Both the position numbers and the translations under genes were made by a program. The notes below the pieces were generated by a model. That model saw only the letters and a program-made list of their open reading frames with translations, ran no database searches and was not told where the DNA came from. A stretch of DNA of 64,000 nt from Janthinobacterium lividum (GTDB lineage: Bacteria; Bacteroidota; Bacteroidia; Cytophagales; Hymenobacteraceae), in contig JBPBPU010000005.1 of assembly GCA_050954465.1 (NCBI GenBank), forward strand, positions 11,910 through 75,909, in the 5' to 3' direction. The first letter of the stretch is position 1. Each line of letters opens with the position of its first letter. Shown in pieces: positions 3,787 through 63,291 of this stretch.

Positions 3787-3950
3787 CGTAGCCGCGAAGC
3801 GGCGGCATGTTGGTAGACACGAAGTAGTTAGGTAGTTTTCAGAGCTGCGAAGCTGCGGCACGTTTATTTCAACGATAAGTGCCGCAGCTCCGCAGCTCTA
3901 GGCTAGTCATCAAGCAGTTGCTACCAACATACCGCCGCTTTGCGGCTACG
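3787..3950. repeat. nested palindromic REP-like element (GTAGCCGCG head)
   Basis: Outer 30-bp arms 3787-3816 and 3921-3950 have 2 mismatches. Inner 21-bp arms 3841-3861 and 3879-3899 have 1 mismatch. The element generates the spurious upstream part of track ORF 3879-5591. Confidence 0.85.
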
Positions 3951-4046
3951 CTGACGAGCCGCTTGCGTAAGTCCTACTACTATGAGCTTTTTGCCTCCGG
4001 TATGCCGCCAAGCGCTGTAGAGGCGCGGCTTCGTAGTATTGCGGCT

Positions 4047-5591
4047 ATGCTTTTTCGTTGGATGCCGCTACGCGTTGCCTGCCTGGCGGCGGGGCTATTG
4101 GCCTACCTGCTGGCCCGGCCGGCTTATAGCCAGGCCCCGCTTGCCCAGCGCTTCACCCGCGCCCAGGTACTGAGCGACTTGCGGCTGTTCCAAGACATTC
4201 AAGAACGGGCGAATGCCGGCCTCTACACTCACCACCCGAAAGCGCAGCTTGATAGCGCCTTTGCCGCTGCCCAGGCGCAGGTAGCCGATTCCATGACGGT
4301 GCTGGCCGTGTACCGGCTGGTAGCCGGCGTTACCGATTTTGCCGGTAGCCTGCACAGCGATACGGTGCTGCCCGATGCAGTGACCAGGGCCCTGCACCAG
4401 CAGGTGGCCTTTTTTCCGTTGCCGGTTAAGTTTCTGGCGGGCACCGTGCTGCTGGACTACTCCCGGGCGGCGCTGCCCGTAGGTACTGAGCTGCTGGCCA
4501 TAAACGGCGTGGCAATACCCCAGCTTACGCGCCCGCTGGGCCGCTACTACACCACCGACGGCTACAACCAAACGGGCAAGCTGGCCGGCCTGAGCGAAAA
4601 TTTCGCGCAGTATTTCTACCTGGAGTATGGCCCGGCAGCGACGTTTGAGGTAGAGTACCGGCTGCCGGGCAGCCCTACCCGACAGGCCCAGCACTTTAGC
4701 GCCGCCTCGTATGCTACGCTGGACCAGCGGTACCGCTACCGCCATTCGGCGGCGCTGGACTCGGCGGCAACTCCGCCCGGCCCCTATGCCTACGGCTTCC
4801 GCGTGGCGGGGCCGGCCGCCGTGCTCACCCTGCGCACCTTCGATATCGGCGACAATGCCCACTCACCGGCCCACCAAGCTTACCGGCGCTTCCTGGATTC
4901 CTGTTTCACGGTTATCCGGGGTATGCCCGCCATCAGGGGGGTAGTGGTGGACGTGCGCGGCAATGGCGGCGGCACCGACCCGAATGACCTGTTAACGTTC
5001 AGCTACTTAGCCCAGCGGCCGTTTCGGGAGAATAAACAGGCCTTCGTGCTTTTCCACGCTATTCCGCACGCTCGCTACCTGCAAACCGACCACCGGGGCC
5101 CGCGCCGCTGGCTCGAAAAACGCCAGCTACGGCGCGAGTTGCAAGCCGAATTTGCCCTGGCTCCCGATGGGCGCTACTACCAGCGGGCCCAGGCTAACCC
5201 GCTCTACCAGCCCAGCCCGCTAAGCACCCGCAAGCCCGTGTACCTGCTCATCGATGGCCGGGTGGCTTCCGCTGCGTCCTTGTTCAGCGCCCTCGTGCGC
5301 GGCAACACGGCCGCAGTAGTCATCGGCGAAGAAACCATGGGGGGCTACTACGGGCACACGGGCCACACGCCGGTAGCGTATCGGCTGCCGGCTACGGGTA
5401 TCGTCACCAGGTTTTCGCTCGTCAGCTTGCAACAGGATGTGCCGGCCCGCGCCAGCCAGCCGCCCGGCCACGGCGTGCTGCCCGACTATTCCGTCACGCA
5501 GTCGCCCACCGATTTTATTGCCGGCCGCGACCCGCAGCTGGCGCTGGCCTTGAAGCTGCTGGCGGAGCGGGCGGCGGCTACGGGGAAGTAA
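4047..5591 (+). CDS. S41-family (tail-specific-like) serine peptidase
   Basis: Motifs seen: VVDVRGNGGGTDPNDL (S41 DxRxNxGG-like), LIDGRVASAASLFSAL (Ser-containing S41 motif) and IGEETMGG. The start is set at ATG 4047 (MLFRWMPLRVACLAAG, signal-like) because upstream codons lie inside the palindromic repeat. Confidence 0.75.
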   Translation: MLFRWMPLRVACLAAGLLAYLLARPAYSQAPLAQRFTRAQVLSDLRLFQDIQERANAGLYTHHPKAQLDSAFAAAQAQVADSMTVLAVYRLVAGVTDFAGSLHSDTVLPDAVTRALHQQVAFFPLPVKFLAGTVLLDYSRAALPVGTELLAINGVAIPQLTRPLGRYYTTDGYNQTGKLAGLSENFAQYFYLEYGPAATFEVEYRLPGSPTRQAQHFSAASYATLDQRYRYRHSAALDSAATPPGPYAYGFRVAGPAAVLTLRTFDIGDNAHSPAHQAYRRFLDSCFTVIRGMPAIRGVVVDVRGNGGGTDPNDLLTFSYLAQRPFRENKQAFVLFHAIPHARYLQTDHRGPRRWLEKRQLRRELQAEFALAPDGRYYQRAQANPLYQPSPLSTRKPVYLLIDGRVASAASLFSALVRGNTAAVVIGEETMGGYYGHTGHTPVAYRLPATGIVTRFSLVSLQQDVPARASQPPGHGVLPDYSVTQSPTDFIAGRDPQLALALKLLAERAAATGK

Positions 5592-5636
5592 TAGCCCACC
5601 CCGTGCTACGGTAAAGACGCCTGGTACCTTAGCCCG

Positions 5637-5978
5637 ATGAAACGCCCATTTATTACCGCGCTTTACCTGCTGCCTGGGCTACTACTACTGCCTGCAACGG
5701 CCCTGGCACACGGCGAGGAAATCCTGCTGACGCTGCTGATTCTGCCGGTTTCTTTGGTAGTTTTTCTACTGATAATTCTGGTAGTTCGCCTTCCTTATGG
5801 CATGAAGGGTATTCTGACAGCAGTCTTTTTGTTAGCAACGGCACTGACTTGGGCAACAATTCTTCCGCGCCCAACCAATTTCGAGTTTGATAACTGGCTG
5901 GTAGCGGGCGTTCCGGCCGCGAGCACCCTGGTAGCTTACGTGGTGGTCAGGGCCTGGCAGGCAATCCGCTCCAAATAA
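5637..5978 (+). CDS. small integral membrane protein (about 4 helices), unknown function
   Basis: 113-aa ORF, almost entirely hydrophobic helices (LLPGLLLLPATALA, LILPVSLVVFLLIILVV, LTAVFLLATALTWATIL). No recognisable family. Confidence 0.5.
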   Translation: MKRPFITALYLLPGLLLLPATALAHGEEILLTLLILPVSLVVFLLIILVVRLPYGMKGILTAVFLLATALTWATILPRPTNFEFDNWLVAGVPAASTLVAYVVVRAWQAIRSK

Positions 5979-5982
5979 CTCC

Positions 5983-6390
5983 CTACTGCTGCCGCGCATA
6001 CTGCCGCCCGGCCAACTCCTTATCCGGCTTAGGCACAGTTCCGGCGTGAGGCCGATAAAATCCTGGATGGTTAGCGATGGCGCCTGAAAGTCTTGCGCTT
6101 CGAGCGTACTCGCCACACCTATGCAGCGCCTTCTGGTGCGGCAGGCGGCCTGCTCACCTGGCATAGCATCCGCTAAATGCCAAGCAGCTTTCGGGCTACC
6201 AGGGAGTAGGCGTGGGGCTGGCCTTTGTCCGCGTCATCGTCGCCCACCGCTGCCTCGAAGTGGCGGCGCTGGTCGAGGATGTAGGCCAACATGACGCTGA
6301 TAAAGCCGGAGCCGATTTTGAAGCCAGCGGCGCGGGCGGCTCCTGGCAAAGGCAGTAGGCCGGTAAGGTGCGGCGGTGGCTCTGGTAACG
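5983..6390 (-). pseudogene. decayed 3' fragment of a HAD-superfamily hydrolase (paralog of 10426-11148)
   Basis: DNA aligns by eye with the 3' ~420 nt of the intact gene, from the shared stop context CTACTG.TGC.GCGCATACTGCC onward. Long identical runs are seen (GAGCGTACTCG, GGCGGCCTGCTC, CATCGTCGCCCACC, GAAGTGGCGGCGC, GTCGAGGATGTAGGC). It also has deletions and a frameshift: track ORF 5832-6164 matches ...GEQAA.R...C.GV.STL.A..FQAP... and then leaves the frame. The N-terminal DxD half is absent. Confidence 0.7.
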
Positions 6391-6399
6391 CGGGCGGCG

Positions 6400-6725
6400 G
6401 ACAGCCTTGTACTGAATAGTTTAATTTTCTGGTTGGTTATAGCTATTATAGGAACTTAAAAATAGTTTTTAAACGGAGAGGTTAAAAATTGTATTTATCC
6501 GTTAAATCTATTTATTAATGCCCAGGTTATTTATACCTTTATAAAACCGTATCAGAGGCATTAACATATTTCCTTTGATTCAAGTGTTCTTTATAATTAT
6601 TGCACTCGCAACTTATACTCTAACCGTTCACCGCAGTTTAGGTGCCCTGGCCAGCTATGTGTTTTTATAAACTCTGTGGCTAATAATACAATTCGTCGTG
6701 CTCCATCATTTATCTCCTTTTACAG
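6400..6725 (+). promoter_or_regulatory. strongly AT-rich leader/promoter region of the 1199-aa surface-protein gene
   Basis: About 320 bp, visibly far more AT-rich than the flanking DNA and without ORFs. It contains the 8-bp inverted repeat TTAATGCC (6515-6522) / GGCATTAA (6557-6564). I could not pin down an explicit promoter motif. Confidence 0.3.
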
Positions 6726-11151: not shown

Positions 11152-11244
11152 GTAGAACGGAGTGGTACTCCGTTTGTCGTTGGCTTCGCCGTCCTTCGGT
11201 TGAACGACTTGTTCTGGCGGGAACGGAGTACCACTCCGTTCTAC
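11152..11244. repeat. palindromic REP-like element (GTAGAACGG head)
   Basis: Perfect 23-bp arms at 11152-11174 and 11222-11244. Each arm is itself a 7-bp-stem hairpin (AACGGAG..CTCCGTT). The spacer carries the shared core GGCTTCGCCGTCCTTCGGTTGAACGA. Confidence 0.85.
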
Positions 11245-11285: not shown

Positions 11286-12986
11286 ATGAAAAAGATACTG
11301 CTGCTCGCTCTGCTGGCCCTGCCCGCCGCCGCCCAGAAGCGCGGCCCGGCCCTGGAGCGGCCCAAGCTGGTGGTGGGCATTATCGTAGACCAGATGCGCT
11401 ACGACTACCTCTACCGCTACTGGGACAAGTTTGGCAGTGGCGGCTTCCGGCGGCTGCTAGGCGAGGGCTTTAGCTACGAGAGTTGCCACTATAACTACGT
11501 GCCTACCTACACCGGGCCGGGCCACACCAGCGTGTACACCGGCACCACGCCCGCCAACCACGGCATTGTGGGCAACAACTGGTACGAGCGCGAAACCGGC
11601 CGCACCACCTACGTAACCGACGACAAAACCGTGCAGGCCGTGGGCGGCTCCACCGCGGCCGGCCAGATGTCGCCGCGCCACAACCTGGCCACCACCATCA
11701 CCGACGAGCTGCGGCTGGCCACCAATTTCCAAAGCAAAGTCATCGGCCTGAGCATGAAAGACCGGGGCAGCATCCTGCCGGCCGGGCACGCCGCCAGCGC
11801 CGCTTACTGGTACGACGGCACCAACGGGGCCTTCATTACCAGCACGTTTTATATGCCGGCCCTGCCCGAGTGGGTAAACAGGTTCAACGCCGCCGGCCAC
11901 GCCGCGCAGTACCTAAGCCAGCCTTGGAACCCGCTGCTGCCCCTGGCCGACTACACCGAAAGCACCCCCGACGACGTGCCTTGGGAGGCGGCCTACCAGG
12001 GCGAAGACCGGCCCGTGTTTCCCCATGACCTGCCCCGGCTGAGTGCCAAGGCGCCCGCCGCCGTGCAGGCCACCAAAGAGGCATCGGGCGAAAAGCCCTC
12101 CGGTGCCCCTACCCGCAACCTCGACCTCATCCGCTCCACGCCCTTCGGCAACTCGCTCACCGCCGACTTCGCCATCGAAGCCCTGCACGCCGAGCAAATG
12201 GGCCAGCGCGGGCAAACCGATTTTCTGGCCGTCAGCTTCAGCAGCACCGATTATGTGGGCCACCAGTTCGGCACCAATGCCGTCGAAACCGAGGACACGT
12301 ACCTGCGCCTCGACCGCGACCTGTCCCGCCTGCTTGAGGCGCTGGATAAGCAGGTGGGCAAAGGCCAGGCACTGGTATTCCTCACCGCCGACCACGCCGC
12401 CGACCAGGCCGCCGGCTTCCTCGAAGCCCACCGCCTGCCGGGCGGCGGCCTGGGCACCGCCCCCCTGCGCGACACCGTGCAGCGTGCCCTCACCCGCCGC
12501 CACGGCGAAGGCAAGTGGATTGCCGACTTCGAAAACCAGCAGGTGTACCTCAACCGCGCCCTCATCACCCAGAAAAAGCTGGAGCTGGCCACCGTGCAAA
12601 ACGAAGTGGCCGAGCTGCTGCGCCAGCAGCCGCACATTGCCCAGGCCATTTCGGCCACCGACTTGCAGCGCAACGCTTGGCCGGTGGGCTTGAGCATGTA
12701 CCAGGCCAACGGCTTCTATGCACCGCGCTCGGGCGATGTCCTGTTTGTGATGTCGCCGGGCTGGCTCGAAGCCTACAGCTACCCCATCGTGAAGGGCACT
12801 ACTCATGGTGCTTCGTGGGCCTACGACACCCATGTGCCGCTGCTGTTCTGGGGCTGGCACGTGCGCCACGGCGAAAGCAGCACCGAAGTCAAAATCGTGG
12901 ACATTGCCCCCACCGTGGCCCGCTACCTGCACATTCAGGAGCCCAGCGGCTGCACGGGAGTGCCGCTTACGGAGGTGATGAAGTAG
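11286..12986 (+). CDS. pafA: PafA-type alkaline phosphatase / nucleotide pyrophosphatase-phosphodiesterase family
   Basis: Signal peptide MKKILLLALLALPAAAQ. The N-terminal block KLVVGIIVDQMRYDYLYRYWDKF...YVPTYTGPGHTSVYTGTTPANHGIVGNNWY is typical of Bacteroidota PafA-like enzymes. Also seen: ...SSTDYVGHQFG...TADHA. The stop TAG lies inside the GTAG head of the next repeat. Confidence 0.8.
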   Translation: MKKILLLALLALPAAAQKRGPALERPKLVVGIIVDQMRYDYLYRYWDKFGSGGFRRLLGEGFSYESCHYNYVPTYTGPGHTSVYTGTTPANHGIVGNNWYERETGRTTYVTDDKTVQAVGGSTAAGQMSPRHNLATTITDELRLATNFQSKVIGLSMKDRGSILPAGHAASAAYWYDGTNGAFITSTFYMPALPEWVNRFNAAGHAAQYLSQPWNPLLPLADYTESTPDDVPWEAAYQGEDRPVFPHDLPRLSAKAPAAVQATKEASGEKPSGAPTRNLDLIRSTPFGNSLTADFAIEALHAEQMGQRGQTDFLAVSFSSTDYVGHQFGTNAVETEDTYLRLDRDLSRLLEALDKQVGKGQALVFLTADHAADQAAGFLEAHRLPGGGLGTAPLRDTVQRALTRRHGEGKWIADFENQQVYLNRALITQKKLELATVQNEVAELLRQQPHIAQAISATDLQRNAWPVGLSMYQANGFYAPRSGDVLFVMSPGWLEAYSYPIVKGTTHGASWAYDTHVPLLFWGWHVRHGESSTEVKIVDIAPTVARYLHIQEPSGCTGVPLTEVMK

Positions 12987-13067
12987 CGCGATTTCTGTAA
13001 ATCGCGTCGCCGCGCCGTTAAAATGAGTCGAACGGCGCGGGGACGCAATTTACAGAAATCGCGCTAC
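12983..13067. repeat. palindromic REP-like element (GTAGCGCGA head)
   Basis: 37-bp arms at 12983-13019 and 13031-13067 with 2 mismatches. The first four bases GTAG contain the pafA-like stop codon. Confidence 0.85.
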
Positions 13068-13676: not shown

Positions 13677-13692
13677 GCTACTGCTCCGCACA

Positions 13693-13788
13693 AAAAGAAC
13701 GTCATGCTGAGCTTGCCGAAGCATCTCTACCGCGCCGCCTGGGTTGTTCGGTAGAGATGCTTCGGCAAGCTCAGCATGACGTTCTTTT
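13693..13788. repeat. palindromic element of the AAGAACGTCATGCTGA family
   Basis: Perfect 40-bp arms at 13693-13732 and 13749-13788. It produces mirror-image spurious peptides MLRQAQHDVL on both strands (track ORFs 13521-13724 and the first 24 codons of 13757-14677). Confidence 0.9.
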
Positions 13789-13828
13789 GGTTTTTCCTAA
13801 ACGAGTAATCAGCGTTTTCATCCAAAGC

Positions 13829-16201: not shown

Positions 16202-16220
16202 GCCTCCCTTTGGTAGCAAA

Positions 16221-16258
16221 CGCCCCCTTCCTGCTTGCCAGGAAGGGGGCGTTTTTTT
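16221..16258 (+). terminator. rho-independent terminator
   Basis: An 11-bp GC-rich stem, CGCCCCCTTCC / GGAAGGGGGCG, followed by T7, 20 nt after the OmpA-like stop. Confidence 0.85.
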
Positions 16259-18262: not shown

Positions 18263-18308
18263 CTGGCTAGGTAAGCGCCTGTTGGCTTTCCGGCGAGGTC
18301 GCCTACTA

Positions 18309-18468
18309 CGACACCTCACCTCCTAGCCCCCAGAGTCGCTACGTTCTAGTGCTGTCGCCCTTCGCGACACCTCACCTCCTAGCCCCCTCTCCGAAGAGAG
18401 GGGAGGAATCATCTTTCCAATGCAGGTTTCTAGGGCAAAACTAGAGCTAGTTCCCCTCTCCACGGGAG
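18309..18468. repeat. cluster of short repeats of the CCCCTCTCC...GGAGAGGGG family
   Basis: The 22-bp direct repeat CGACACCTCACCTCCTAGCCCC occurs at 18309-18330 and 18365-18386. An 8-bp-stem hairpin spans 18384-18403. CTAGTTCCCCTCTCCACGGGAG at 18447-18468 recurs at 57095-57118 and, inverted, at about 56829-56856. Confidence 0.7.
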
Positions 18469-24532: not shown

Positions 24533-24622
24533 AGCAATGAGCAATTAGTAATGAACAAGGAGCAATGTCGTTCTTGTCTTTGAACGACATTGCTCCTTGT
24601 TCATTACTAATTGCTCATTGCT
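24533..24622. repeat. AT-richer palindromic element between convergent genes (GTAGCAATG head at 24531)
   Basis: Perfect 40-bp arms at 24533-24572 and 24583-24622 with a 10-nt loop. It abuts the sdaAA stop and overlaps the stop of the minus-strand gene by 1 nt. Confidence 0.9.
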
Positions 24623-37256: not shown

Positions 37257-37361
37257 GTAGAGACGCATCTTTGCGTCTTGTCGTTAGCTTCGCTGACCTC
37301 CGGTTGAACGAGGCTACTGGCGCGTTTCAAACAACGCCGAGACGCAAAGATGCGTCTCTAC
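37257..37361. repeat. palindromic REP-like element (GTAGAGACG head), copy 1
   Basis: Perfect 22-bp arms at 37257-37278 and 37340-37361. Each arm is a hairpin (AGACGCA..TGCGTCT). The 61-nt spacer carries TTAGCTTCGCTGACCTCCGGTTG. Confidence 0.9.
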
Positions 37362-39051: not shown

Positions 39052-39155
39052 ATAGAGACGCATCTTTGCGTCTCGTCGTTAGCTTCGCTGACCTTCGGTT
39101 GTTTGAAACACGCCAGTAGTCTCTTCAACGACGAGACGCAAAGATGCGTCTCTAC
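39052..39155. repeat. palindromic REP-like element (GTAGAGACG family), copy 2
   Basis: 29-bp arms at 39052-39080 and 39127-39155 with 1 mismatch, at the first base (ATAG vs GTAG). The spacer shares the core with copy 1, but its central ~25 nt are in inverted orientation. Confidence 0.9.
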
Positions 39156-42317: not shown

Positions 42318-42475
42318 AAGAACGTCAGGCAAAAAGGCGGTCATGCTCATCTAGCGTACGCTTGCCGAAGCATCTTGCTCGCCAACTAACTCAATCGGTT
42401 GCGCCGCTGACTCTCGGTTCAATGACGCGAGCGAAATGCTTCGGCAAGCGTACGCTAGATGAGCATGACGTTCTT
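42318..42475. repeat. palindromic element (AAGAACGTCA / TTGCCGAAGCAT family) between the TolC and MFP genes
   Basis: 43-bp arms at 42340-42382 and 42427-42469 with 2 mismatches. The outer AAGAACGTCA / TGACGTTCTT ends are at 42318-42327 and 42466-42475. The left arm carries a 12-nt insertion (GGCAAAAAGGCG). Confidence 0.85.
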
Positions 42476-42495
42476 TTTATCCCGTTCTATTTCTC

Positions 42496-43629: not shown

Positions 43630-43770
43630 TCGCCCTCCGGGGCTCACCCCACCCCCCGGCCCCCTCCCCTTCGGGAGAGGGGGAGCCACGGCGGCGCAGT
43701 TATGAAGTCGTCAGGCTCCCCCTCTCCCGAAGGGGAGGGGGCCGGGGGGTGGGGTGAGCGCGGAGGGCGA
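43630..43770. repeat. GC-rich palindromic element (CCCCTCCCC...GGGGAGGGG family) between the MFP and RND genes
   Basis: About 57-bp arms at 43630-43687 and 43714-43770, near-perfect (one indel and one mismatch). Each arm has its own sub-hairpin. The element accounts for the spurious first 34 codons of track ORF 43702. Confidence 0.85.
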
Positions 43771-47655: not shown

Positions 47656-47757
47656 TTAGTTGAGCGTTAAAAAGTGAAGAGGCAAGAGTTGAAACTTCGG
47701 CTGCACAAGCAGTCTAAGTTTCAACTCTTGCCTCTTCACTTTTTAACGCTTAACTAA
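47656..47757. repeat. palindromic element between convergent genes
   Basis: 42-bp arms at 47656-47697 and 47716-47757 with 1 mismatch and an 18-nt loop. It starts 3 nt after the ACP-like stop and ends 2 nt before the convergent stop. Confidence 0.9.
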
Positions 47758-50374: not shown

Positions 50375-50713
50375 ATGAGCGCCCCTCCAACTTTCGTCAA
50401 TTCTCCTCTCGCCCGCATTGCCCGCCTGGTGCTAGGCCGCGCTCCCCGCGTGGCTATGGTGTTGGGCCACACCGTACACTTGAGCGGAGCCACCCGCGAG
50501 GAATTCCTGGCCGACCCCGAGTGGGTAGCCCACGAAGAAGTGCATCTGCGCCAAGTGCGCGACCTCGGCCGCCTGCGCTTCCTCTACGAGTACCTGCTGG
50601 AATCGGCGCGGGTCGGCTACTACCAGAACAAGTTTGAAGTAGAGGCACGGGAAGGGGCCACGCAGTTTATGCTAAACTGCCAAGTAGCGCCAGCCGAAGG
50701 CCGACATAGCTAA
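50375..50713 (+). CDS. small DUF4157-like putative metallopeptidase-fold protein
   Basis: 112 aa. Has ...MVLGHTVHLSG...WVAHEEVHLRQ with an HExxH (HEEVH), laid out as in DUF4157 domains. The assignment is tentative. Confidence 0.4.
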   Translation: MSAPPTFVNSPLARIARLVLGRAPRVAMVLGHTVHLSGATREEFLADPEWVAHEEVHLRQVRDLGRLRFLYEYLLESARVGYYQNKFEVEAREGATQFMLNCQVAPAEGRHS

Positions 50714-50715
50714 CC

Positions 50716-50799
50716 CAAGTTGCGAGGCAAGGTTGGGCGGTCAACTCCCCTCCTTAGCCAAGGAGGGGAGTTGGCCGCCTGGCAGTACGCTGCAACTTG
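50716..50799. repeat. nested hairpin between convergent genes (CCCCTCC family)
   Basis: Outer arms CAAGTTGC (50716-50723) / GCAACTTG (50792-50799). Inner 14-bp stem CAACTCCCCTCCTT (50742-50755) / AAGGAGGGGAGTTG (50760-50773). Confidence 0.7.
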
Positions 50800-50820
50800 A
50801 GTTAGCTAAGCTACCTGGCG

Positions 50821-52424: not shown

Positions 52425-52540
52425 ATAGCGTGGGCTTTAGCTACGCTGACCTTCGGTTGTAGTCCGCGTTTGCGCTGTTTGCCCTAACGGTGCGAACGCG
52501 GACTACAACCGAAGGTCAGCGTAGCTAAAGCCCACGCTAC
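52425..52540. repeat. palindromic REP-like element (ATAGCGTGGGC...GCCCACGCTAC)
   Basis: 46-bp arms at 52425-52470 and 52495-52540, with 45 perfect pairs and a first-base mismatch. The arms contain the core TTAGCTACGCTGACCTTCGGTTG shared with other families. Confidence 0.9.
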
Positions 52541-53362: not shown

Positions 53363-53479
53363 ACAACAAAAGAACGTCATGCTGAACAGAATGAAGCATC
53401 TCGTTTGCGTCGTTGAATTAGTAACTCAACGATACGAGCACGATGCTTCACTCCGTTCAGCATGACGTTCTTTTGTTGT
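53363..53479. repeat. imperfect palindromic element of the AAGAACGTCATGCTGA family
   Basis: The ends ACAACAAAAGAACGTCATGCTGAAC (53363-) and GTTCAGCATGACGTTCTTTTGTTGT (-53479) are complementary. The inner arm parts have diverged. Confidence 0.8.
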
Positions 53480-53539: not shown

Positions 53540-54892
53540 ATGCTCTTTTACACCGTGATGAAGCCGCTAGTGCGCCTGGGGCTGCGCGTGTTTTTCCGGC
53601 GCCTCGAAGTGCGCCACCCCGAGCGCCTGCGCCTGCCCGGCCCCCTGCTGCTGTGCGGCAACCACCCCAATACCCTCATGGACCCGCTCGTGACGGCCGT
53701 GCAGCGCCGCCAGCCCATTGCCTTTCTGGCCAAGAGCACCTTCTTCAAAAACCCGGTACTAGGGGCCATCATGCGTTCCGGCAACTGCATTCCCATCTAC
53801 CGGCGGCAGGATGCCGAGGGCGGCACCGAGCGCCTGACCCCAGCCCAGCTGGCCGCCAGCAACGAAGCCAGCTTCGGGCGCTGCTACGACTACCTGGAGC
53901 ACGGCGGCACGGTGATGATATTTCCCGAGGGCACCAGCGTGAGCGAGCGCCGCCTGCGCCCGCTCAAAACCGGGGCCGCCCGCATTGCGCTGGGCACCGA
54001 GGCCCGGCACGATTTCAAGCTGGGCCTGCAACTAGTGTGCGTGGGCACCAACTACTTCGACCCCAGCAAATTTCGCTCCGACGTGCTGCTCAACGTGGCC
54101 CCGCCTATCCGGGTAGCCGACTACGCCGAGCGCTACCACCACGACCCCGACGCCGCCGCCGACGAGTTGACCGACGAAATAGCGCGCCGCCTGAGTCGCC
54201 GCCTCGTCATCAGCCACGCCGCCGAGTACGACGAGCTGGCCCAGCAGATTGAGCGCACCTTCGGCGACCACCTCAACCCCGACGACGACCCCACCACGCT
54301 CTACGACAACTTCACGCTCAGCCGTACCGTGCTCGATGCCGTGGCCTGGTTTGAGCAGCACGCTCCCGCCCAGGTAAACGCCCTGCGCACGGCCCTCAGC
54401 GGCTACCTCACCAACCTGCAACAACAGCGCCTCGACGACGAAGCTTTGAGCCAGAGTTTTCACTCGCGCCTGCTCGACTACCTCAACCTCGTGCTGGGCC
54501 TGCCCGTGTGGCTCTACGGCGTGCTCACCAACTACATTCCCTACATCCTGCCCTCCGAAGTAGCCCGCCGCGCCACCCGCGAAACCGAGTTTATTGCGGC
54601 TATTCTGCTCGGGGTGGGCATGGTTACGTTTCCGCTGGCCTACGCCCTGGAGGCCGCCGCCGTGCAGCACTGGCTCACCCACGACTGGCGCCTCACGGCC
54701 CTGTTCGTGCTCAGCCTGCCGCTTACCGGTTTCTATGCCCTCGGCTACTGGCAGAGCCTGAGTGCCCGCCTGCGCCGCCTGCGCGCCCGCTGGCTGGCCC
54801 CGGCCGTTGCCACCGGGTTGCGCGAGCAGCGCGCCACCGTGCTGCGCCTGCTAGATGAGGCACGGGCCGCGTATGCGGGAAGGGGAGTGTAG
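53540..54892 (+). CDS. PlsC-type lysophospholipid/glycerol-3-phosphate acyltransferase with C-terminal membrane domain
   Basis: The HX4D block is CGNHPNTLMDP. Also seen: FAKSTFF, IFPEGTS, LKTGAARIAL. There are C-terminal TM helices. The start is at ATG 53540. The stop TAG lies inside the next repeat. Confidence 0.8.
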   Translation: MLFYTVMKPLVRLGLRVFFRRLEVRHPERLRLPGPLLLCGNHPNTLMDPLVTAVQRRQPIAFLAKSTFFKNPVLGAIMRSGNCIPIYRRQDAEGGTERLTPAQLAASNEASFGRCYDYLEHGGTVMIFPEGTSVSERRLRPLKTGAARIALGTEARHDFKLGLQLVCVGTNYFDPSKFRSDVLLNVAPPIRVADYAERYHHDPDAAADELTDEIARRLSRRLVISHAAEYDELAQQIERTFGDHLNPDDDPTTLYDNFTLSRTVLDAVAWFEQHAPAQVNALRTALSGYLTNLQQQRLDDEALSQSFHSRLLDYLNLVLGLPVWLYGVLTNYIPYILPSEVARRATRETEFIAAILLGVGMVTFPLAYALEAAAVQHWLTHDWRLTALFVLSLPLTGFYALGYWQSLSARLRRLRARWLAPAVATGLREQRATVLRLLDEARAAYAGRGV

Positions 54893-54946
54893 GGTAAGCT
54901 TTAGCTTGTCGGCCACCCGAGCGGCGAGCTAAAGCTTACCCTACAC
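54887..54946. repeat. palindromic REP-like element (GTAGGGTAAGCT head), copy 1
   Basis: Perfect 20-bp arms at 54887-54906 and 54927-54946. It fills the whole gap between the two convergent stop codons. Confidence 0.9.
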
Positions 54947-56603: not shown

Positions 56604-56768
56604 GGTGAGTAGAAACTGAAATCAACAAAAGCTAGTGGCCAAACAACTGGTAAGCCATAAAGGCCCAGCTACCATCGCCGCACACTTGGCTTGGCCGGTA
56701 GCATTACCGCTTCCCAACCGCAGGATTTTTAAAGTCAGGGGAAAATCCAGCACCAACCGGCTGAGTAA

Positions 56769-57183
56769 CTGCTGTTATGCAGCCGTCTCGCCCTCCGCAT
56801 TTACCTCACGAGACCCCTATGGAGCATAGCCCTCTCCTGTGGAGAGGGGCAACTAGCCTCTAGTTTTATTTTTTAGCTCTAATCCAGCCTTGTAAGTTAA
56901 ATACTAGGGCTAAAAATTACTCTACTATTTTTTTGCCGCCGTTTTCAAGCTGTTTCGGGCGGGTGTTGTAGGGTGCGGGGCTTGCCCCCGCCCGTCGTTG
57001 AACGACTGTTCAATGTTCGTTCAACGACGGGCGGGGGCAAGCCCCGCACCCTACAAACCTCGGAAAATTTTTAGTAGGGTAGAGTAGCTAAAAACTAGTT
57101 CCCCTCCCCATAGGAGAGCAGGCTACACCCCATAGGGGTCTCGTGAGGTAAATGCGGAGGGCGAGACGGCTGCATAACAGCAG
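56769..57183. repeat. 415-bp triple-nested composite palindrome
   Basis: The outer 54-bp arms, 56769-56822 and 57130-57183, are perfect. The middle layers are diverged (CCCTCTCC..GGAGAGGGGCAACTAG at about 56829-56856 vs 57095-57118, and AT-rich GCTAAAAATTACTCTAC vs GTAGAGTAGCTAAAAAC). The innermost 40-bp arms, 56966-57005 and 57017-57056 (GTAGGGTGCGGGG head), are perfect. Confidence 0.9.
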
Positions 57184-57697: not shown

Positions 57698-58459
57698 TTG
57701 CACCATACTTTTGTCTTATCCCCTCCCACCCTTGTTAAAATTACATTCTTTGTGCCAGATGCTTTACCCTTGCCAACTGCCCAACTAGCCTTGGTGGCTG
57801 CTACTATCGAACCAACCGGTTCGCCTTCTCTGCCTGGCTCTCCCTACGCTGCTGCGCCAACTTCCCGGCTACTGCCACAACGGAGGGCCGCGTTGCGCGC
57901 TATTCCCCAAACCAGTATTCTGTGGGAGCAGCTGGCTATTCAGCGGCGGGAAATGCAGGCCGCCGAAGCCGCCCTGAGTGAGCTACTAGCGCGTTCAGCC
58001 AAGCCTCGGGTTTCGCGGCTGCGCGAGTGGCTGGGCCGCTACGGGCCAGCGCAACTGCTATCGGTGCTGGCCACGCTGGGTGCAGCCCAGGCAGCTACCC
58101 ACGCCGGAGCCAATGGCGTAGCAGTAGCCCTTGCTGCCACTTGGACTGGCAATCTGGCTTATTTCGGCCTTATTCTGGGGCAGGATGTGAGGCGCACTCG
58201 CTACCAGCTGCACACCCAGGGCCGAGCCTACACCTGGCGCACCCTTGCCCGCAATGGGCGGGCGCTAGTGGTAGAGTTTGGCACAGCCGAAGCCCTGGAC
58301 AGCCTACTTATTCGCCCGGCGCTCCTGTACTGGCTGCCGCGCTGGCTGCACCATATGCCACTAGGCGTGATGGTAGGGCAGCTAGCTGCTGATGTTACGT
58401 TCTATATTCCAGCCATTATCAGCTACGAGCTAAGCAAAGAGCGGCTGCGAAGGTTTTGA
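57698..58459 (+). CDS. hypothetical membrane protein (start uncertain)
   Basis: 253-aa ORF with a TTG start in the track. The C-terminal ~150 aa have about 4 hydrophobic helices. No recognised family. It lies on the opposite strand between the kinase and regulator genes. Confidence 0.4.
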   Translation: MHHTFVLSPPTLVKITFFVPDALPLPTAQLALVAATIEPTGSPSLPGSPYAAAPTSRLLPQRRAALRAIPQTSILWEQLAIQRREMQAAEAALSELLARSAKPRVSRLREWLGRYGPAQLLSVLATLGAAQAATHAGANGVAVALAATWTGNLAYFGLILGQDVRRTRYQLHTQGRAYTWRTLARNGRALVVEFGTAEALDSLLIRPALLYWLPRWLHHMPLGVMVGQLAADVTFYIPAIISYELSKERLRRF

Positions 58460-58525
58460 GGGTTGCTGGTACCTGATGCCTAGACTACTCAATCGGCTGT
58501 CAGCACGACCCTCAAACCAGTAACC

Positions 58526-59917: not shown

Positions 59918-59943
59918 AGCGGGGGTATAACCGGGCAGCGCCC

Positions 59944-61311
59944 ATGGGGTTAGCAGCGGGGCAGCGCAGGAACCAGCCGACCGCGCAACTGGCGCTAATT
60001 TCCCACAACCTAATTTGCGCCGTGACTGCTGCCCCCTCCCCTTTCCAGCTTACGCGTGAGCATGTGTTGCGGGCCCTGCGCCTAGTGGAGCGCGAGGGCC
60101 GCCGCCTGCCGCCCAGCACGGTGTACGAGCTGCTGTACCGGGGCCGCCGCTACCCGCCCCGCGCCGTGGCCGAGCTGGCCTACCGCCTCGCCCTGGCCGA
60201 CGCGCAAGCCCGCTGGCCCCACCCGGCCGGCCAGCCCACCAATGCCCTGCTCGAAGCCCTCGATTTCACCATTGTGGCCAAGCGCCCCATGCTCACGGCA
60301 GGCCAGCCCCACGACCAGGAGCAGGCCGCCGAACAAGCCGCCGAAAACCTCTACACCGGCTCCCCGCGCCCTGCCGCGCCGGCAGTTTCGGCGGTGGCAG
60401 AAGCGGCGGGCTCCTACGCCAGCCCGGCCCCGGCCTACGCACTGGCCGATGCCCTACGGGAAGTTTTTGTGTCGGAACCCGCCCTGAGTGCGGCCCTGGC
60501 GGGTTTGCGCCGCCGCAAGGCGCTGCTGCTGCAAGGCCCGCCGGGCACGGGCAAAACGTTTCTGGCCCGCCGCCTGGCGTGGCTGCTGCAAGGCAGCCAG
60601 GACGAGCGCCGCACCGAGCTGGTGCAGTTTCATCCCAGCTACGGCTACGAGGACTTTCTGCTCGGCTTCCGCCCCGGCCCCGACGGGCAGTTTCAACTGG
60701 TGCCAGGGGTGCTGCCGCTGCTGTGCCAGCGCGCCGCCCAGGACCCCGACCACCCGTATTTTCTGCTGATTGAGGAGCTGAACCGGGGCAACGTGGCCCG
60801 TATTTTTGGCGAGCTGCTGCTGTTGCTGGAGCCCGATAAGCGCGGCCCTGCCCACGCCATGCGCCTGCCCTACGCGCCGCCCGAGGCCCCGCGCTTCTTC
60901 GTGCCCGCCAACCTCTACGTTATTGGCACCCTCAACCTGGCCGACCGCTCCCTGGCCCCGCTCGACTACGCGCTACGCCGCCGGTTTGCGTTTGTGGGCC
61001 TGGGGCCGCAGTTTGGCGAGCCCTTGCAGCAGCAGCTACGCACAGCGGGTGTGCCCACCCCCCTGCTGGCCGAGCTGGCAAAGCGGATGGTGGCGCTCAA
61101 CCACGTTATTGCCGCTGACCCAGAGCTGGGGCCGGATTTTGAGGTGGGCCACAGCTACTTCTGCGCGCCGCCGCTGGTGCCTACCGAAGCTGGCGAGTGG
61201 CTGCGCCTGATTTTTGAGCAGGAAATCGGCCCGCTGCTCGCCGACTATTGGCGCGAGCAGCCGGAACGGGCCGCCGCACAGCTGCAACGGCTGGTAGCGG
61301 GCGTAGGGTAA
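59944..61311 (+). CDS. mcrB: McrB-family AAA+ GTPase subunit of a type IV restriction system
   Basis: Motifs seen: LLQGPPGTGKTFLARRLA (Walker A), FHPSYGYEDFL, LLIEELNRGNVARIFGELLLLLE, VIGTLNLADRSLAPLDYALRRRFAF. The N-terminal ~100 aa form a separate small domain followed by an Ala/Pro-rich linker. The true start may be GTG 60022. The last codons and the stop lie in the next repeat. Confidence 0.85.
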   Translation: MGLAAGQRRNQPTAQLALISHNLICAVTAAPSPFQLTREHVLRALRLVEREGRRLPPSTVYELLYRGRRYPPRAVAELAYRLALADAQARWPHPAGQPTNALLEALDFTIVAKRPMLTAGQPHDQEQAAEQAAENLYTGSPRPAAPAVSAVAEAAGSYASPAPAYALADALREVFVSEPALSAALAGLRRRKALLLQGPPGTGKTFLARRLAWLLQGSQDERRTELVQFHPSYGYEDFLLGFRPGPDGQFQLVPGVLPLLCQRAAQDPDHPYFLLIEELNRGNVARIFGELLLLLEPDKRGPAHAMRLPYAPPEAPRFFVPANLYVIGTLNLADRSLAPLDYALRRRFAFVGLGPQFGEPLQQQLRTAGVPTPLLAELAKRMVALNHVIAADPELGPDFEVGHSYFCAPPLVPTEAGEWLRLIFEQEIGPLLADYWREQPERAAAQLQRLVAGVG

Positions 61312-61405
61312 GCTGCAGCTTGCCAATTTTAGGCGTTAGGGGTTTAGGCCCGACATTCACCAACAACCTCATTACTTTAAACTGGCAAGCTGAAGCTTAC
61401 CCTAC
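61303..61405. repeat. palindromic REP-like element (GTAGGGTAAGCT head), copy 2
   Basis: 23-bp arms at 61303-61325 and 61383-61405 with 1 mismatch and a 57-nt spacer. The left arm contains the mcrB stop TAA (61309-61311). The right arm ends 5 nt before the next ATG. Confidence 0.9.
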
Positions 61406-61410
61406 ATCTT

Positions 61411-62094
61411 ATGCGTAACGTCCGGCTTTTAGTCATTTGCCTGCTTAGTGCCAGCTTCCGCCTGGTGTTTGCGCAAGGCAGCACCTCCGATTCTACTCTG
61501 GCCTGGAAGCAGGTGGTGCTTGGTACTGGGGCCAGCATTGCCATGCCCGCTACGGCGGCCCTTTCCTCAAGCGCTACCAAAGAGATTCCGGCCTATGTGG
61601 CCCGCAGCCACGAAGCCATTTACATGGTAGCCGTCACCTGCGCCGACTCGGCCGCCACCGACGGCGAGCAGCTGAGCGGCAGCGCGCTGGATACGGTGTA
61701 CGCGGCGGCGTTCAAGAGCCTCCTGCGCACGGGCAGCCAGGACCGCATCGTGAGCCAGACAGCCTTTACTCTGGCCGGGCAACGCGGCGTGGAGGCGCAA
61801 CTCGACCTGCCCAATGCGCCCAACCTGGCCCGCGCCAAGTTTGCGCGGGTATTTTATTTCAACGGCTTTATTTACATCCTCACCTGGCGCGAAACCTCCA
61901 GCCACGCGCCCACCGATGAGCCCGACAACCGCCAACACTTTTTTACGTCGCTGCGCATGAAGCCCAGTGCCCCGCATCCGGCCGTTTCGGGGCCTCGCCA
62001 GCTCGGGCGCTTGCTGGGGCAACTACTGGTGTTGGCTGCCGTGGTGGTGGGGATTGTTGTTTTTGTTAGGCGGCAGTCGCGGCCCGCCCGGTAG
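61411..62094 (+). CDS. secreted, C-terminally membrane-anchored protein of unknown function inserted between mcrB and mcrC
   Basis: Signal peptide MRNVRLLVICLLSASFRLVFAQG. The body of about 150 aa looks beta-rich. C-terminal TM helix LLGQLLVLAAVVVGIVVFV followed by RRQSR. Confidence 0.55.
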   Translation: MRNVRLLVICLLSASFRLVFAQGSTSDSTLAWKQVVLGTGASIAMPATAALSSSATKEIPAYVARSHEAIYMVAVTCADSAATDGEQLSGSALDTVYAAAFKSLLRTGSQDRIVSQTAFTLAGQRGVEAQLDLPNAPNLARAKFARVFYFNGFIYILTWRETSSHAPTDEPDNRQHFFTSLRMKPSAPHPAVSGPRQLGRLLGQLLVLAAVVVGIVVFVRRQSRPAR

Positions 62095-62108
62095 CCCGCC
62101 CGCCGCTC

Positions 62109-63152
62109 ATGATACCCCTCGCCACGCTCTACTACCTGCTGTGCTACGCCTGGCAGCGCCTGCCCGAGCCGGCCGTACTGCAAGCCACCGAGGGCGCGCC
62201 GTTTCACCGGCCCCTGGAGCTGCTTACCCAGATGCTGCTGCACGCCACGCGCCAGTTGTTGCGTGCAGGGCTGCCCAGGGGGTTTGTCAGCCACGAGGCC
62301 GAAATCGGCGAATTGCGCGGGCGCGTGGTGCTGGCGCCTACCATCGGGCGGGGGCTGCTGCCGCAGGGCCGGGCCGTGTGCCAGTTCGACGAGCTAAGCC
62401 CCAACCTGCCCCTGACGCGGCTGCTGGCTGGCACCCTGGCGGCACTGGTAGCCCACCCAGCATTGCCCCTGGCTTTGCGGCGAACGGTGGGGCAGCTGCG
62501 CCGCCGCCTGCCGGCCGGGGTGCAGCCTACGGCCCCGGCGGCCGGGGTATTTGCCAGCCTGCGCCGCCAGCGGTGGGCGGCGGGCGAGGCGTTTTTATTG
62601 CACATCTGCGAGCTGATTTTCCAAACGGCCCTGCCCGCTCCTACCGCCGAGGGCCGGGGCCGCTTCCCCGATTTCCGGCGCGACGAAGGGCTGATGGCGC
62701 GCTTATTTGAACAGGCCGTGCGCAATTTCTACCGCCGCGAGCAGCGCCAGTACCGGGTATTTGCCGAAACCATTGCCTGGCAGGCCGAAGCCGCGGAACC
62801 CGCCAGCCTGGCCCTGCTGCCCACCATGCTCACCGATACCACGCTGGAAAGCCCGACCCGCAAAATCATCCTCGACACCAAATACTACGCGGCGGCTCTG
62901 CGCTCGCGCTACGACCAGCAACGGCTTATTTCGCCGCACCTCTACCAGCTCTATGCCTACCTGCAAAACCTGCGCCCGGCCCCCGGCCAGGCGCTCGAAG
63001 GCATCTTGCTATACCCGGCAGCCACAAAGGCTCTTGATGTGCGCTACACCCTGGGCGGCCACCCCGTGCGGGTTGTCACCCTCGACCTGCACCAGCCCTG
63101 GCCAGGCATTGCGGCTGCGCTGCTGGATTTGGTGGGTGATGGGAGCAACTGA
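62109..63152 (+). CDS. mcrC: McrC-family nuclease subunit of a type IV restriction system
   Basis: N-terminal LYYLLCYAW... C-terminal PD-(D/E)xK-like block LTDTTLESPTRKIILDTKYY....LYQLYAYL, typical of McrC. Confidence 0.8.
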   Translation: MIPLATLYYLLCYAWQRLPEPAVLQATEGAPFHRPLELLTQMLLHATRQLLRAGLPRGFVSHEAEIGELRGRVVLAPTIGRGLLPQGRAVCQFDELSPNLPLTRLLAGTLAALVAHPALPLALRRTVGQLRRRLPAGVQPTAPAAGVFASLRRQRWAAGEAFLLHICELIFQTALPAPTAEGRGRFPDFRRDEGLMARLFEQAVRNFYRREQRQYRVFAETIAWQAEAAEPASLALLPTMLTDTTLESPTRKIILDTKYYAAALRSRYDQQRLISPHLYQLYAYLQNLRPAPGQALEGILLYPAATKALDVRYTLGGHPVRVVTLDLHQPWPGIAAALLDLVGDGSN

Positions 63153-63161
63153 CGTTACGCA

Positions 63162-63291
63162 GTAGCGCGAAGCTTTCGCTTCATGCATCGCCGTAGCGCG
63201 GCGATGCTCGCGGGTGCAGTTATTGACCTAAGCGGCGTGGTGCCAGATTCGCCGTGTTGCGGCGATGCGCGAAGCGAAAGCTTCGCGCTAC
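63162..63291. repeat. palindromic REP-like element (GTAGCGCGAAGC head)
   Basis: 32-bp arms at 63162-63193 and 63260-63291 with 2 mismatches. An extra internal copy of CGGCGATGC (63199-63207) forms a sub-hairpin with the left arm. Confidence 0.85.

Follow-up and report, generated by a model that had tools for sequence, protein, structure and literature searches.

The window analysed here is a stretch of 64,000 nucleotides (GenBank assembly GCA_050954465.1, contig JBPBPU010000005.1, positions 11,910 to 75,909 of the forward strand), in which a first-pass annotation had listed eighteen intergenic palindromes as one dense population of GTAG-headed repeats. Our analysis indicates that the GTAG-headed elements, about ten of the eighteen, are very probably repetitive extragenic palindromic (REP) sequences arranged in inverted doublets (REP doublets forming hairpins, or REPINs, also described as “double-foot” REPs), that is, non-autonomous elements of the system of REP-associated tyrosine transposases (RAYTs, or TnpAREP), enzymes of the HUH-Y1 type; the element at 24533 has the same apex motif. 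We favor this interpretation because two of the families are repeated in many genomes, congeners have RAYT genes with these doublets at their sides, each doublet shows co-variation between its arms, and orthologous sites are polymorphic. The earlier proposal that the palindromes are mobilised by a RAYT-type Y1 transposase is supported for this GTAG subset but not for about seven other palindromes; likewise, unlike head families are present, as proposed, although all eighteen elements had been lumped together and about seven are palindromes of other kinds. These others comprise a CGTC-like family resembling bidirectional terminators, C-tract palindromes, an element with long terminal inverted repeats similar to a MITE (miniature inverted-repeat transposable element), and singletons.

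Judged by its proteins, the source of the window is a Hymenobacter (Bacteroidota, Cytophagales) without a very close sequenced relative, because the named homologues of its YjeF-like protein, at 66-80% identity, all belong to that genus; the same protein has a 100% identical match in a MAG (metagenome-assembled genome) at NCBI, on a contig of 81.6 kb. The name “Janthinobacterium lividum”, which NCBI attaches to the proteins of the source MAG, is a wrong label, since the close homologues are all from Hymenobacter.

The GTAG-headed doublets

A REP is recognised by a stem-loop behind a 5’ GTAG (or GT[AG]G), and ten elements have this form, with GTAG followed by a stem of 7-9 bp and a loop of 2-5 nt. 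GTAG...CTAC limits are found in the elements at 3787, 11152, 12983, 37257, 39052, 52425, 54887, 61303 and 63162 and in the inner element of 56769, with ATAG as the left head of two of them (39052 and 52425). The statement that most elements begin with GTAG and end with CTAC therefore holds for 10 of the 18, while the rest are of other types: no GTAG stem-loop is seen at 13693, 42318, 53363, 43630, 47656, 50716 or 18309, and 24533 has GTAG at one side alone. The doublets consist of an inverted pair of REPs around a short spacer (10-50 nt) and fold into one long hairpin, with z scores from -5.8 to -18.5. All the elements lie within gaps of a gene map based on G+C content at third codon positions (GC3); 16 of the 18 abut the 3’ end of a gene, and the flanking genes are convergent in 6 cases, tandem in 10 and divergent in 2. 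Positions of this kind, shortly after a stop codon, are usual for REPs (PMC3733652). The elements of this class, and the related palindrome at 24533, are given below; none has an assigned strand, percentages are the complementarity of the arms, and z refers to folding as single-stranded DNA.

37257..37361: REPIN-type inverted doublet; head GTAGAGACGCA-TCTT-TGCGTCT; arms 30 nt, 93%; z = -8.4.
39052..39155: REPIN-type doublet of the same GTAGAGACGCA family, left head mutated to ATAG; arms 31 nt, 97%; z = -10.6.
11152..11244: REPIN-type doublet; head GTAGAACGGAGT-GGT-ACTCCGTT; arms 24 nt, 100%; z = -8.9.
12983..13067: GTAG...CTAC doublet; head GTAGCGCGATTT; arms 38 nt, 95%; z = -12.5.
54887..54946: short REPIN, or “double-foot” doublet; head GTAGGGTAAGCT; arms 25 nt, 92%; z = -9.0.
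61303..61405: REPIN-type doublet between an McrB-like open reading frame (ORF) and an unknown ORF; head GTAGGGTAAGCT; arms 27 nt, 93%; z = -5.8.
56966..57056: perfect REPIN-type doublet inside a 415-nt element; head GTAGGGTGCGGGG, apex CGTCGTTGAACGAC; arms 40 nt, 100%; z = -16.5.
63162..63291: GTAG doublet within a GTAG doublet; GTAGCGCGAAGC as the outer head and GTAGCGCGGCGATGC as the inner one; arms 50 nt, 84%; z = -9.1.
52425..52540: nested palindrome; outer arms (A/G)TAGCGTGGGCTTTAGCTACGCTGACCTTCGGTT including module A, inner GTAGTCCGCG...CTAC doublet; arms 54 nt, 94%; z = -18.5.
3761..3976: long inverted repeat (listed as 3787); CGTAGCCGCGAAGCGGC...GCTACG arms of 56 nt, 84%; inner 21-nt hairpin at 3841-3899, 95%.
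24533..24622: perfect palindrome with 41-nt arms; AGCAATGAGCAAT..., with a GTCGTT...AACGAC apex and GTAG at the left side alone; z = -17.3.

The heads are GTAGAGACGCA and GTAGGGTAAGCT, in two elements each, and GTAGAACGGAGT, GTAGCGCGATTT, GTAGCGCGAAGC, GTAGGGTGCGGGG, GTAGCCGCGAAGCGGC and (A/G)TAGCGTGGGC with inner GTAGTCCGCG; each is present in one or two elements within the window. Many different heads occur here, versus one dominant family in other Hymenobacter loci. Below the variety there is a common layout, in which GTAG is followed by the 7-9 bp hairpin that sets the family and then, in several families, by (C/T)GTCGTT(GAACGAC). The GTCGTT...AACGAC apex has four exact matches, in four different arm families, versus 0.07 expected, and an insert that we call module A (GCTTCGCTGACCTTCGGTTG) is present in 5 copies in the window versus 2 in 1.7 Mb of other loci. 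Module A follows GTCGTT in the interior of 37257 (AGCTTCGCTGACCTCCGGTTG), and the interior of 11152 reads GTCGTT, module A, GTTGAACGAC.

The doublets at 37257 and 39052, which flank the same M28 peptidase gene, are 94% identical over 54 nt. They probably arose by copying within this lineage, to which their private TCTT loop, the common module A and this identity point, because the corresponding sites of relatives are empty or different. Inside them, a segment of 33 nt (GTTGAA...TTTCAAACAAC) has opposite orientations at 37303-37335 and 39098-39129, with the outer arms and module A in the same orientation; the interior of the hairpin may thus have undergone a “flip”.

Some of these elements reach into the neighboring genes. 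The stop codons at 12984-12986, 54890-54892 and 61309-61311 sit within the GTAG/GTAGGGTAA head of the adjacent REP, and the ORFs that they end encode a phosphodiesterase (TAG, at 12983), an acyltransferase (at 54887) and an McrB-like AAA_5 protein (TAA, at 61303). The last codons and the stop of a RAYT gene in a related locus (L163, see below) come from a REP as well.

Structure and statistics of the palindromes

An inverted-repeat search found arms at essentially all the listed positions, with lengths of 24-58 nt and complementarity of 78-100%, including perfect inverted arms of 40, 41 and 46 nt. The description of every element as two inverted arms is right for 17 of the 18, which are strong two-arm palindromes, but not for 18309-18468, a direct repeat with a small hairpin. 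When folded as single-stranded DNA, 15 of 16 tested elements gave z scores between -5.8 and -18.5, with none of 200 shuffles folding equally well, and the long-range pairs at 3761-3976 (56-nt arms, 84%) and 56769-57183 (68-nt arms, 93%) were confirmed.

The association of GTAG with a hairpin was counted over the whole window, with a stem of at least 7 bp and no more than one mismatch. There are 38 such cases, compared with a mean of 12.3 in 20 dinucleotide shuffles (range 7-21). The mismatch-free GTAG hairpins (n = 10) are nearly all in gaps, which make up about 14% of the window; the clear exception, at 52279-52301, lies within a coding sequence, while the hairpin at 63268-63291 is counted as coding merely through a doubtful ORF start in the gene map. 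The perfect-stem detector misses GTAGGGTAAGCT, whose stem has one T/C mismatch, so its family counts are lower bounds. For repeats we relied on an all-against-all blastn comparison of the intergenic sequences, a census of 11-mers over the whole window being swamped by GC-rich coding repeats.

Copies of the arms in other genomes

Two of the head families are abundant outside the window, which bears out the expectation that the arms are repeated elsewhere. Family 1 was searched as GTAGAGACGCA-N4-TGCGTCTC, with 19 fixed bases, in a contig collection holding one genome per species, and was found in at least 119 stretches versus about 4 expected by chance; 61 of the matches listed come from Hymenobacter species or MAGs. 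Outside that genus, matches lie in Spirosoma, Fibrella, Rudanella, Mucilaginibacter, Flavipsychrobacter, Chitinophagaceae, MAGs of Bacteroides, Prevotella and Porphyromonadaceae (Bacteroidales), and Ignavibacteria, together with a single match in Sedimentisphaerales that may be due to chance. The exact GTAGAGACGCA-N4-TGCGTCTC sequence spans Cytophagia, Sphingobacteriia, Chitinophagia, Bacteroidia and Ignavibacteria, and the RAYTs that it flanks are only about 40-50% identical; such conservation is unusually deep for a REP sequence. The density in the Hymenobacter loci suggests roughly one exact copy of family 1 per 100 kb. Two same-strand GTAGAGACGCA REPs, at 6559-6581 and 8039-8061, were also seen in an IMG/VR contig of 8392 nt classed as viral (L003).

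In Hymenobacter, 22 of the family 1 matches form +/- doublets, most often 82 nt long and with GTCGTTGAACGA in the interior. These 82-nt doublets run in the order GTAG-hairpin-GTCGTTGAACGA, about 20 nt, and TCGTTCAACGAC-hairpin’-CTAC. One doublet (L074) holds a variant of module A, as in the window, and another (L107) is a minimal 26-nt “double foot”. The loops of the two arms are exact complements in 18 of the 21 Hymenobacter GTAGAGACGCA doublets, with at least six loop variants between loci, and the same complementarity is seen at 37257 and 39052 in the window. The doublet, and not the single REP, is the evolving unit, because the arm loops are complementary within doublets yet differ between loci.

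Family 2, with the head GTAGGGTAAGCT, was searched as GTAGGGTAAGCTNNAGCTTG and found in at least 120 metagenome stretches, many of them doublets. Synteny with the window, at a nucleotide identity of 75-89%, assigns several of these contigs to Hymenobacter, and Hymenobacter psoromatis has a single GTAGGGTAAGCT REP. As for the other heads, GTAGAACGGAGT recurs nine times (with up to 2 mismatches) in Hymenobacter-like metagenome loci, and the arm of 24533 has one related match (L148).

RAYT genes flanked by the same doublets

It had been stated that no transposase gene lies in the window, and this is the case: neither tblastn and profile hidden Markov model searches with RAYT queries nor Pfam and NCBIfam scans of nearly all its ORFs found one. 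A weak tblastn RAYT match at 51226-51441 was rejected, the ORF being that of a short-chain dehydrogenase/reductase (SDR) oxidoreductase. The genes are found in relatives. With RayT of Escherichia coli as query, tblastn gave distant homologues on plasmids of Cytophagales; no match to a Hymenobacter plasmid was obtained with RAYT queries, nor any plasmid match for the element at 56960-57062. The plasmid RAYTs of Spirosoma and Fulvitalea are flanked by REPs of the GTAGAGAC type; the Spirosoma homologue ends directly at GTAGAGACAAGGCATGCCTTGTCTCTAC, and the Fulvitalea gene has GTAGAGACATG doublets. The Spirosoma protein then served as query for RAYT genes at the loci of our family scans.

A Y1 gene flanked by matching arms, which the first-pass annotation had proposed to look for, is present in these loci. 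RAYT genes with GTAGAGACGCA doublets immediately at both sides were found in H. armeniacus BT189 (L122), a Hymenobacter MAG (L027) and a Bacteroides MAG (L048), and the upstream doublet of the Hymenobacter MAG contains module A exactly as in the window elements at 37257 and 39052. In a Cytophagales MAG the RAYT is flanked by GTAGGGGCGCG REPs. Homologues of the Hymenobacter RAYT occur in at least ten named Hymenobacter species, some of them annotated as RayT. By these comparisons, the GTAGAGAC-type REP is conserved across several classes of Bacteroidota, although divergence of its RAYT has left an identity of about 40-50%.

The flanked gene of the relatives has the characters of a RAYT: an HUH motif, a single tyrosine in YxxxNP and an IS200-like Y1 core. 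The Hymenobacter protein (P0241) carries HUH (MPDHVHG), WQ and YIxNNP motifs, and in an alignment of 34 sequences (A1) H90, H92, W144, Q145, Y165 and N169 are invariant and P170 is present in at least 90%. A search of the PDB with the single Hymenobacter sequence gave nothing meaningful; the family profile matched only 4ER8, the TnpAREP of E. coli (E = 6e-8), with the HUH and tyrosine motifs aligned. The sole NCBIfam match of the protein is NF047646, REP-associated tyrosine transposase.

A second RAYT type adjoins GTAGGGTAAGCT doublets in L163, L212 and L180, and it scores above the NF047646 cutoff (86 bits in L163 and 83 in L180). Locus L212 is collinear with 55-63 kb of the window. Its positions 6210-7002, 791 nt between the orthologues of 54948-56603 and 58526-59917, hold the RAYT between a GTAGGGTAAGTT doublet and a GTAGGGTAAGCT doublet, that is, a RAYT gene between REPs (REPtron). 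The RAYT is a multi-frameshift pseudogene split over three reading frames in L212; L163 is arranged likewise, its RAYT having one in-frame TAG. At the corresponding site (56604-58530) the window has 1.9 kb with the MITE-like element, a stretch of 41% G+C and an ORF (57698-58459) without a family match. From this comparison, the family-2 REPtron of this locus has decayed in the clade and is absent from the source at that site. It is possible, though improbable, that the REP population outlives the loss of its RAYT, since the syntenic REPtron has decayed in relatives and is absent from the window.

Presence, absence and replacement at orthologous sites

Comparison of orthologous gaps among relatives revealed polymorphism of presence and absence, as had been anticipated, and also replacement of one family by another. 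The gap between ygbB and the M28 gene is 24 nt long and empty in H. psoromatis, has a family-2 doublet in the metagenome contig L226 and family-1 doublets with the same right flank in H. segetis and H. negativus, and in the window is occupied by the 104-nt doublet of family 1 with module A (39052). Between the M28 and LUD genes, H. segetis has no element, H. psoromatis a different, GTCATTGCGAGC palindrome, and the window the family-1 doublet at 37257. The gap between the HlyD and resistance-nodulation-division (RND) permease genes holds a C-tract palindrome (43630) in the window versus an 82-nt family-1 GTAGAGACGCA doublet in H. negativus.

Four further sites are empty in the available relatives, namely 11152 (compared with H. 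psoromatis), 12983 (with L001 and L002), and 61303 and 63162 (both with L212). Different elements are found at 24533, where H. psoromatis has another palindrome, and at 42331, where H. negativus has a different element like family b, one of the palindrome families without GTAG. At 13693, the counterpart in H. psoromatis is a simple hairpin whose outer stem is the same, and this family b site looks vertically inherited. Two outcomes had been named as fatal to the idea of a REPIN population, arms that are not repeated elsewhere and sites fixed in all relatives with no Y1 gene; at the level of the genus, neither is what we find.

Proposed mechanism and alternative explanations

By homology to the TnpAREP enzymes of E. 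coli, Stenotrophomonas maltophilia and Marinomonas (PMC8266576, PMC3479197), an arm would fold in single-stranded DNA, and the RAYT would bind its hairpin, take the 5’ GTAG as a guide, and cut and rejoin the DNA at a nearby CT or CA. Over time, the doublet would spread as a unit into extragenic DNA, mostly just 3’ of genes, without target-site duplication. GTAG-dependent cleavage and rejoining of REPs is known only for the enzymes of these three organisms (PMC8266576), and for the source genome we infer both the catalytic mechanism and past or present activity by analogy. The elements may additionally influence the 3’ ends of mRNAs.

Several observations weigh against assigning the GTAG elements to a REP/REPIN system. 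There is no RAYT gene within the 64-kb window, and a cognate enzyme in the source genome is hypothetical; the syntenic family-2 REPtron site of the window has none, and in both relatives (L212 and L163) the RAYT at this site is a pseudogene. The H. psoromatis group, the closest named relatives, has no named RAYT homologue among the 120 matches listed. RAYTs of the P0241 type score below curated cutoffs, with 48-63 bits versus 80 for NF047646 and 17 versus 23 for Pfam Y1_Tnp (PF01797). For four heads (12983, 3787, and 52425 outer and inner) the 1.7 Mb of related loci contain no copy, nor do they contain one of the full 25-nt arm of 63162, although shorter GTAGCGCGAAG(C) hairpins and doublets do recur; these are putative repeat families, by their architecture. 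The per-genome copy numbers of families 1 and 2 are, moreover, lower bounds.

Some of these points are what one would expect if the GTAG doublets were a relic population, which persists without further mobilisation, whose RAYT or RAYTs were lost or pseudogenised, and whose arms stay nearly perfect through a host function under selection or through repair templated by the hairpin. The frameshifts of the family-2 RAYT in L212, the in-frame TAG in L163 and the absence of the gene from the syntenic gap of the window fit such a history, as does the lack of RAYTs in the window and, among the matches listed, in the H. psoromatis group. However, arms that are perfect (two, of 24 and 40 nt) or nearly so (93-97% over 30-38 nt) would be hard to keep without recent copying or correction, the shared features of 37257 and 39052 (TCTT loop, module A, 94% identity, with relatives’ sites empty or different) indicate copying inside the lineage, and our evidence covers 64 kb of the source genome. 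We regard the relic scenario as a real but minor possibility. Less likely still is a modular scheme, in which the GTAG foot and the GTCGTT(GAACGAC) apex are kept and any of four or more unrelated sequences may take the place of the hairpin that separates them (GTAGAGACGCA, GTAGAACGGAGT, GTAGGGTGCGGGG and AGCAATGAGCAAT). It is suggested because the heads are so varied, unrelated hairpins stand between the same GTAG and GTCGTT/module A flanks, and there are perfect 40-nt arms. If it were true, one RAYT would read shape and feet and mobilise many families in trans, or the cut-and-join activity of the RAYT would shuffle the modules.

It is very improbable that the GTAG doublets are ordinary terminators or mRNA-stabilising hairpins that evolved in place and never moved. 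The 16 elements that abut gene 3’ ends would suit this explanation, as would the A-run and T-run flanks of family b (13693, 42318, 53363) and of 47656, which resemble those of bidirectional intrinsic terminators, and the hairpin with the same outer stem at 13693 in H. psoromatis, a sign of vertical inheritance. Identical arms of 19-23 nt of the GTAG class are nevertheless found at unrelated loci in many genera and flank RAYT genes, and orthologous GTAG sites are empty or of another family. We rejected intrinsic terminators for the GTAG class on the T-run: the doublets have none, unlike family b, 47656 and the hairpin at 16213-16253 (T7), and a terminator function is plausible solely for family b and 47656. 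The least credible of the alternatives is that of MITEs, deletion derivatives of insertion sequences (IS) with DDE transposases that move by their terminal inverted repeats and duplicate the target site. The 415-nt element at 56769-57183 does have 68-nt terminal inverted repeats and GAGTAA at each flank, and DDE transposase genes are present in contigs of relatives; but no direct repeats flank the GTAG doublets, every arm has its own hairpin and GTAG foot, and the neighbors are HUH-Y1 genes, not DDE. Terminal inverted repeats matching a DDE-type IS together with a target-site duplication were not found for the GTAG class, which was rejected as MITEs; that explanation fits the outer 415-nt element alone. 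A CRISPR (clustered regularly interspaced short palindromic repeat) array or a small RNA family was also rejected, as there is no tandem spacing and no match in Rfam.

Elements other than GTAG doublets

The palindromes of the window that are not GTAG doublets are listed below in the same format, again without strand assignment.

13690..13791: family b palindrome with A-run and T-run flanks; AAGAACGTCATGCTGAGC...GAAGCATC; arms 43 nt, 98%; z = -16.9.
42331..42478: family b palindrome between TolC-like and HlyD-like genes; arms 52 nt, 90%.
53363..53479: family b palindrome; apex GTCGTTGA...TCAACGAT; arms 58 nt, 84%; z = -11.8.
43630..43770: C/G-tract palindrome; CCCCTCCCCTTCGGGAGAGGGGG; arms 46 nt, 100%; z = -15.6.
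50707..50808: imperfect C-tract palindrome (listed as 50716); core CAACTCCCCTCCTT/AAGGAGGGGAGTTG; arms 49 nt, 78%; z = -8.3.
18298..18468: irregular repeat; 34-nt direct repeat and 14-nt CCCCTCTCC/GGAGAGGGG hairpin; z = -1.9.
47656..47757: long hairpin, rich in AT and flanked by A/T-runs, in a gap where two genes converge; arms 49 nt, 94%; z = -16.8; terminator-like singleton.
56769..57183: MITE-like element of 415 nt; 68-nt terminal inverted repeats, 93%; GAGTAA at both flanks.

Family b, with arms of the form AAAGAACGTCATGCTGAGC...GAAGCATC and an A-run and a T-run at the flanks, looks like a bidirectional terminator, judging from the palindrome at 13690. This palindrome has 13 related copies in other loci, and the family is found seven times across the family-2 metagenome loci. 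Similar palindromes without GTAG (...AACGTCATGCTGAGC...GAAGCATC, GTCATTGCGAGC..., GTCATCCTGAGCAGAGCGAAG...) occupy the same gaps with very different sequences in different Hymenobacter species; the sites concerned are 13690-13791, 42331-42478 and 53363-53479 in the window, 4089-4212 and 9363-9409 in L002, and the TolC-HlyD gap in L087.

The elements at 43630, 18309 and 50716 are C-rich “CCCCTC” palindromes of the CCCCTCTCC type. An ORF for a PBP1C-like protein beside the Hymenobacter RAYT in L027 (2168-4705) contains an in-frame stretch “PPSPLSRGEGE...SPLSTGEGGRGGEV”, which looks like palindromes of the CCCCTCTCC/GGAGAGGGG type inserted into coding sequence. No copy of the hairpin at 47656 was found in 1.7 Mb of other loci. 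The 1.7 Mb of related loci likewise held no second copy of 56769-57183, for which we found no parent IS; the GAGTAA at its two flanks is a possible 6-bp target-site duplication. A hairpin that had not been listed before, at 16213-16253, begins with GTAG and has a perfect 14-bp stem followed by T7, 3’ of a DUF937/OmpA gene; by these features it is a canonical intrinsic terminator, in contrast to the REPINs, which have no T-run.

Gene content and other features of the window

The window has a G+C content of about 62% and ordinary chromosomal genes, including those for components of an RND efflux system (TolC, HlyD and permease), several proteins with type IX secretion system (T9SS) sorting tails, YjeF, ClpP, a pyrophosphatase, an M28 peptidase and an McrBC-like pair; ygbB and SelR were named solely from their annotated orthologues in L002. 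Searches of the window for tRNAs and Rfam families found nothing. A 38-nt GC-rich hairpin, AAGCGCCCGGCCGCCGCGAGGCAGCCGGGCGCGAAGCC, is identical at 27735-27772 and 30642-30679, 3’ of two neighboring T9SS-tail protein genes whose 3’ ends are likewise similar, and the pair is probably the result of a tandem gene duplication that took the terminator along. At 59944-63152, the McrB-like (AAA_5) and McrC genes are split by the REPIN at 61303-61405 and a 227-aa ORF without a family match; the matching interval of L212 exceeds this one by about 1.4 kb and differs in content. The ORF at 48592-49287 (231 aa) has 39% G+C, compared with 62% for the genome, and no Pfam or NCBIfam match, and may be foreign DNA.

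Relation to known systems and implications

The first-pass annotation was aware of no such system characterised for this lineage. This does not hold for the phylum, since TnpAREP subclass 2.4 (group 4 of Bertels) has already been described as abundant in Cyanobacteria and Bacteroidetes by Quentin et al. 2018 (PMC6006769), and public annotation names RayT homologues in Hymenobacter; among the papers that we searched, none mentions both Hymenobacter and REPINs. The REPs of subclass 2.4 are long and of the “double foot” kind, GT[AG]G...C[TC]AC (PMC6006769). The elements described here share with them the GT[AG]G and C[TC]AC feet on one long palindrome, the position of REPs at both sides of the RAYT, the host phylum Bacteroidota, and a RAYT with N/DH[IFV]H, WQ and YIxNNP motifs. 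They differ in that the motif of the Hymenobacter protein reads DHVH in place of NH[IFV]H, the subclass being placed by motif alone, and in that the many heads of the window, their common GTCGTTGAACGAC apex and the module A insert are absent from the description in PMC6006769, where Hymenobacter is not mentioned. For group 4, Bertels et al. 2017 reported a modest abundance of the flanking 16-mer, with 14 occurrences (PMC5581495).

The REPINs of Pseudomonas fluorescens SBW25 (Bertels & Rainey 2011; PMC5581495) are likewise inverted pairs of REPs that form a long hairpin, with co-evolving arms, an extragenic location and a place beside the RAYT, although they belong to another phylum and to RAYTs of groups 2 and 3. 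REPs of E. coli, with their bacterial interspaced mosaic elements (BIMEs) and TnpAREP/RayT (4ER8; PMC3479197, PMC8266576), are similar in the GTAG head with its hairpin, the BIME-like mosaic and the HUH-Y1 enzyme; however, protein identity is about 25-30%, and the stem in E. coli is bulged and imperfect, whereas in Hymenobacter the stems are short and perfect and the doublets far longer. The GTAG/CGTC super-families of REPs (PMC3733652) resemble our elements in GTAG plus stem-loop, in head-to-head dimers and in a location mostly 3’ of genes, with some overlapping gene ends. That survey, by Di Nocera et al. 2013, reports REPs of the GTAG type from Proteobacteria, Cyanobacteria, Chloroflexi and the Planctomycetes-Verrucomicrobia-Chlamydiae (PVC) superphylum, and from Bacteroidetes only CGTC REPs (PMC3733652). 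Family b is like these CGTC repeats of Bacteroidetes in its ...CGTC + AT... start, a likeness seen by eye only, and unlike them in its 5-bp stem and 11-nt loop versus stems of 8-9 bp (PMC3733652). What we describe adds a lineage to a system already known and is no new kind of mobile element.

To our knowledge, the biology of REPs and REPINs has been worked out almost wholly in Gammaproteobacteria. For Hymenobacter and other Bacteroidota, the window and its related loci present a clear system of REPtrons and REPINs, with at least two RAYT types, each paired with its own REP family, with some intergenic “hot spots” occupied by different families in different species, and with one REPtron caught in the course of decay. 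For annotation it is useful to know that these repeats make spurious small ORFs and sometimes provide stop codons. Together, the loci offer material for studying how RAYTs recognise their REPs and for how long REPIN populations survive after the RAYT is lost.

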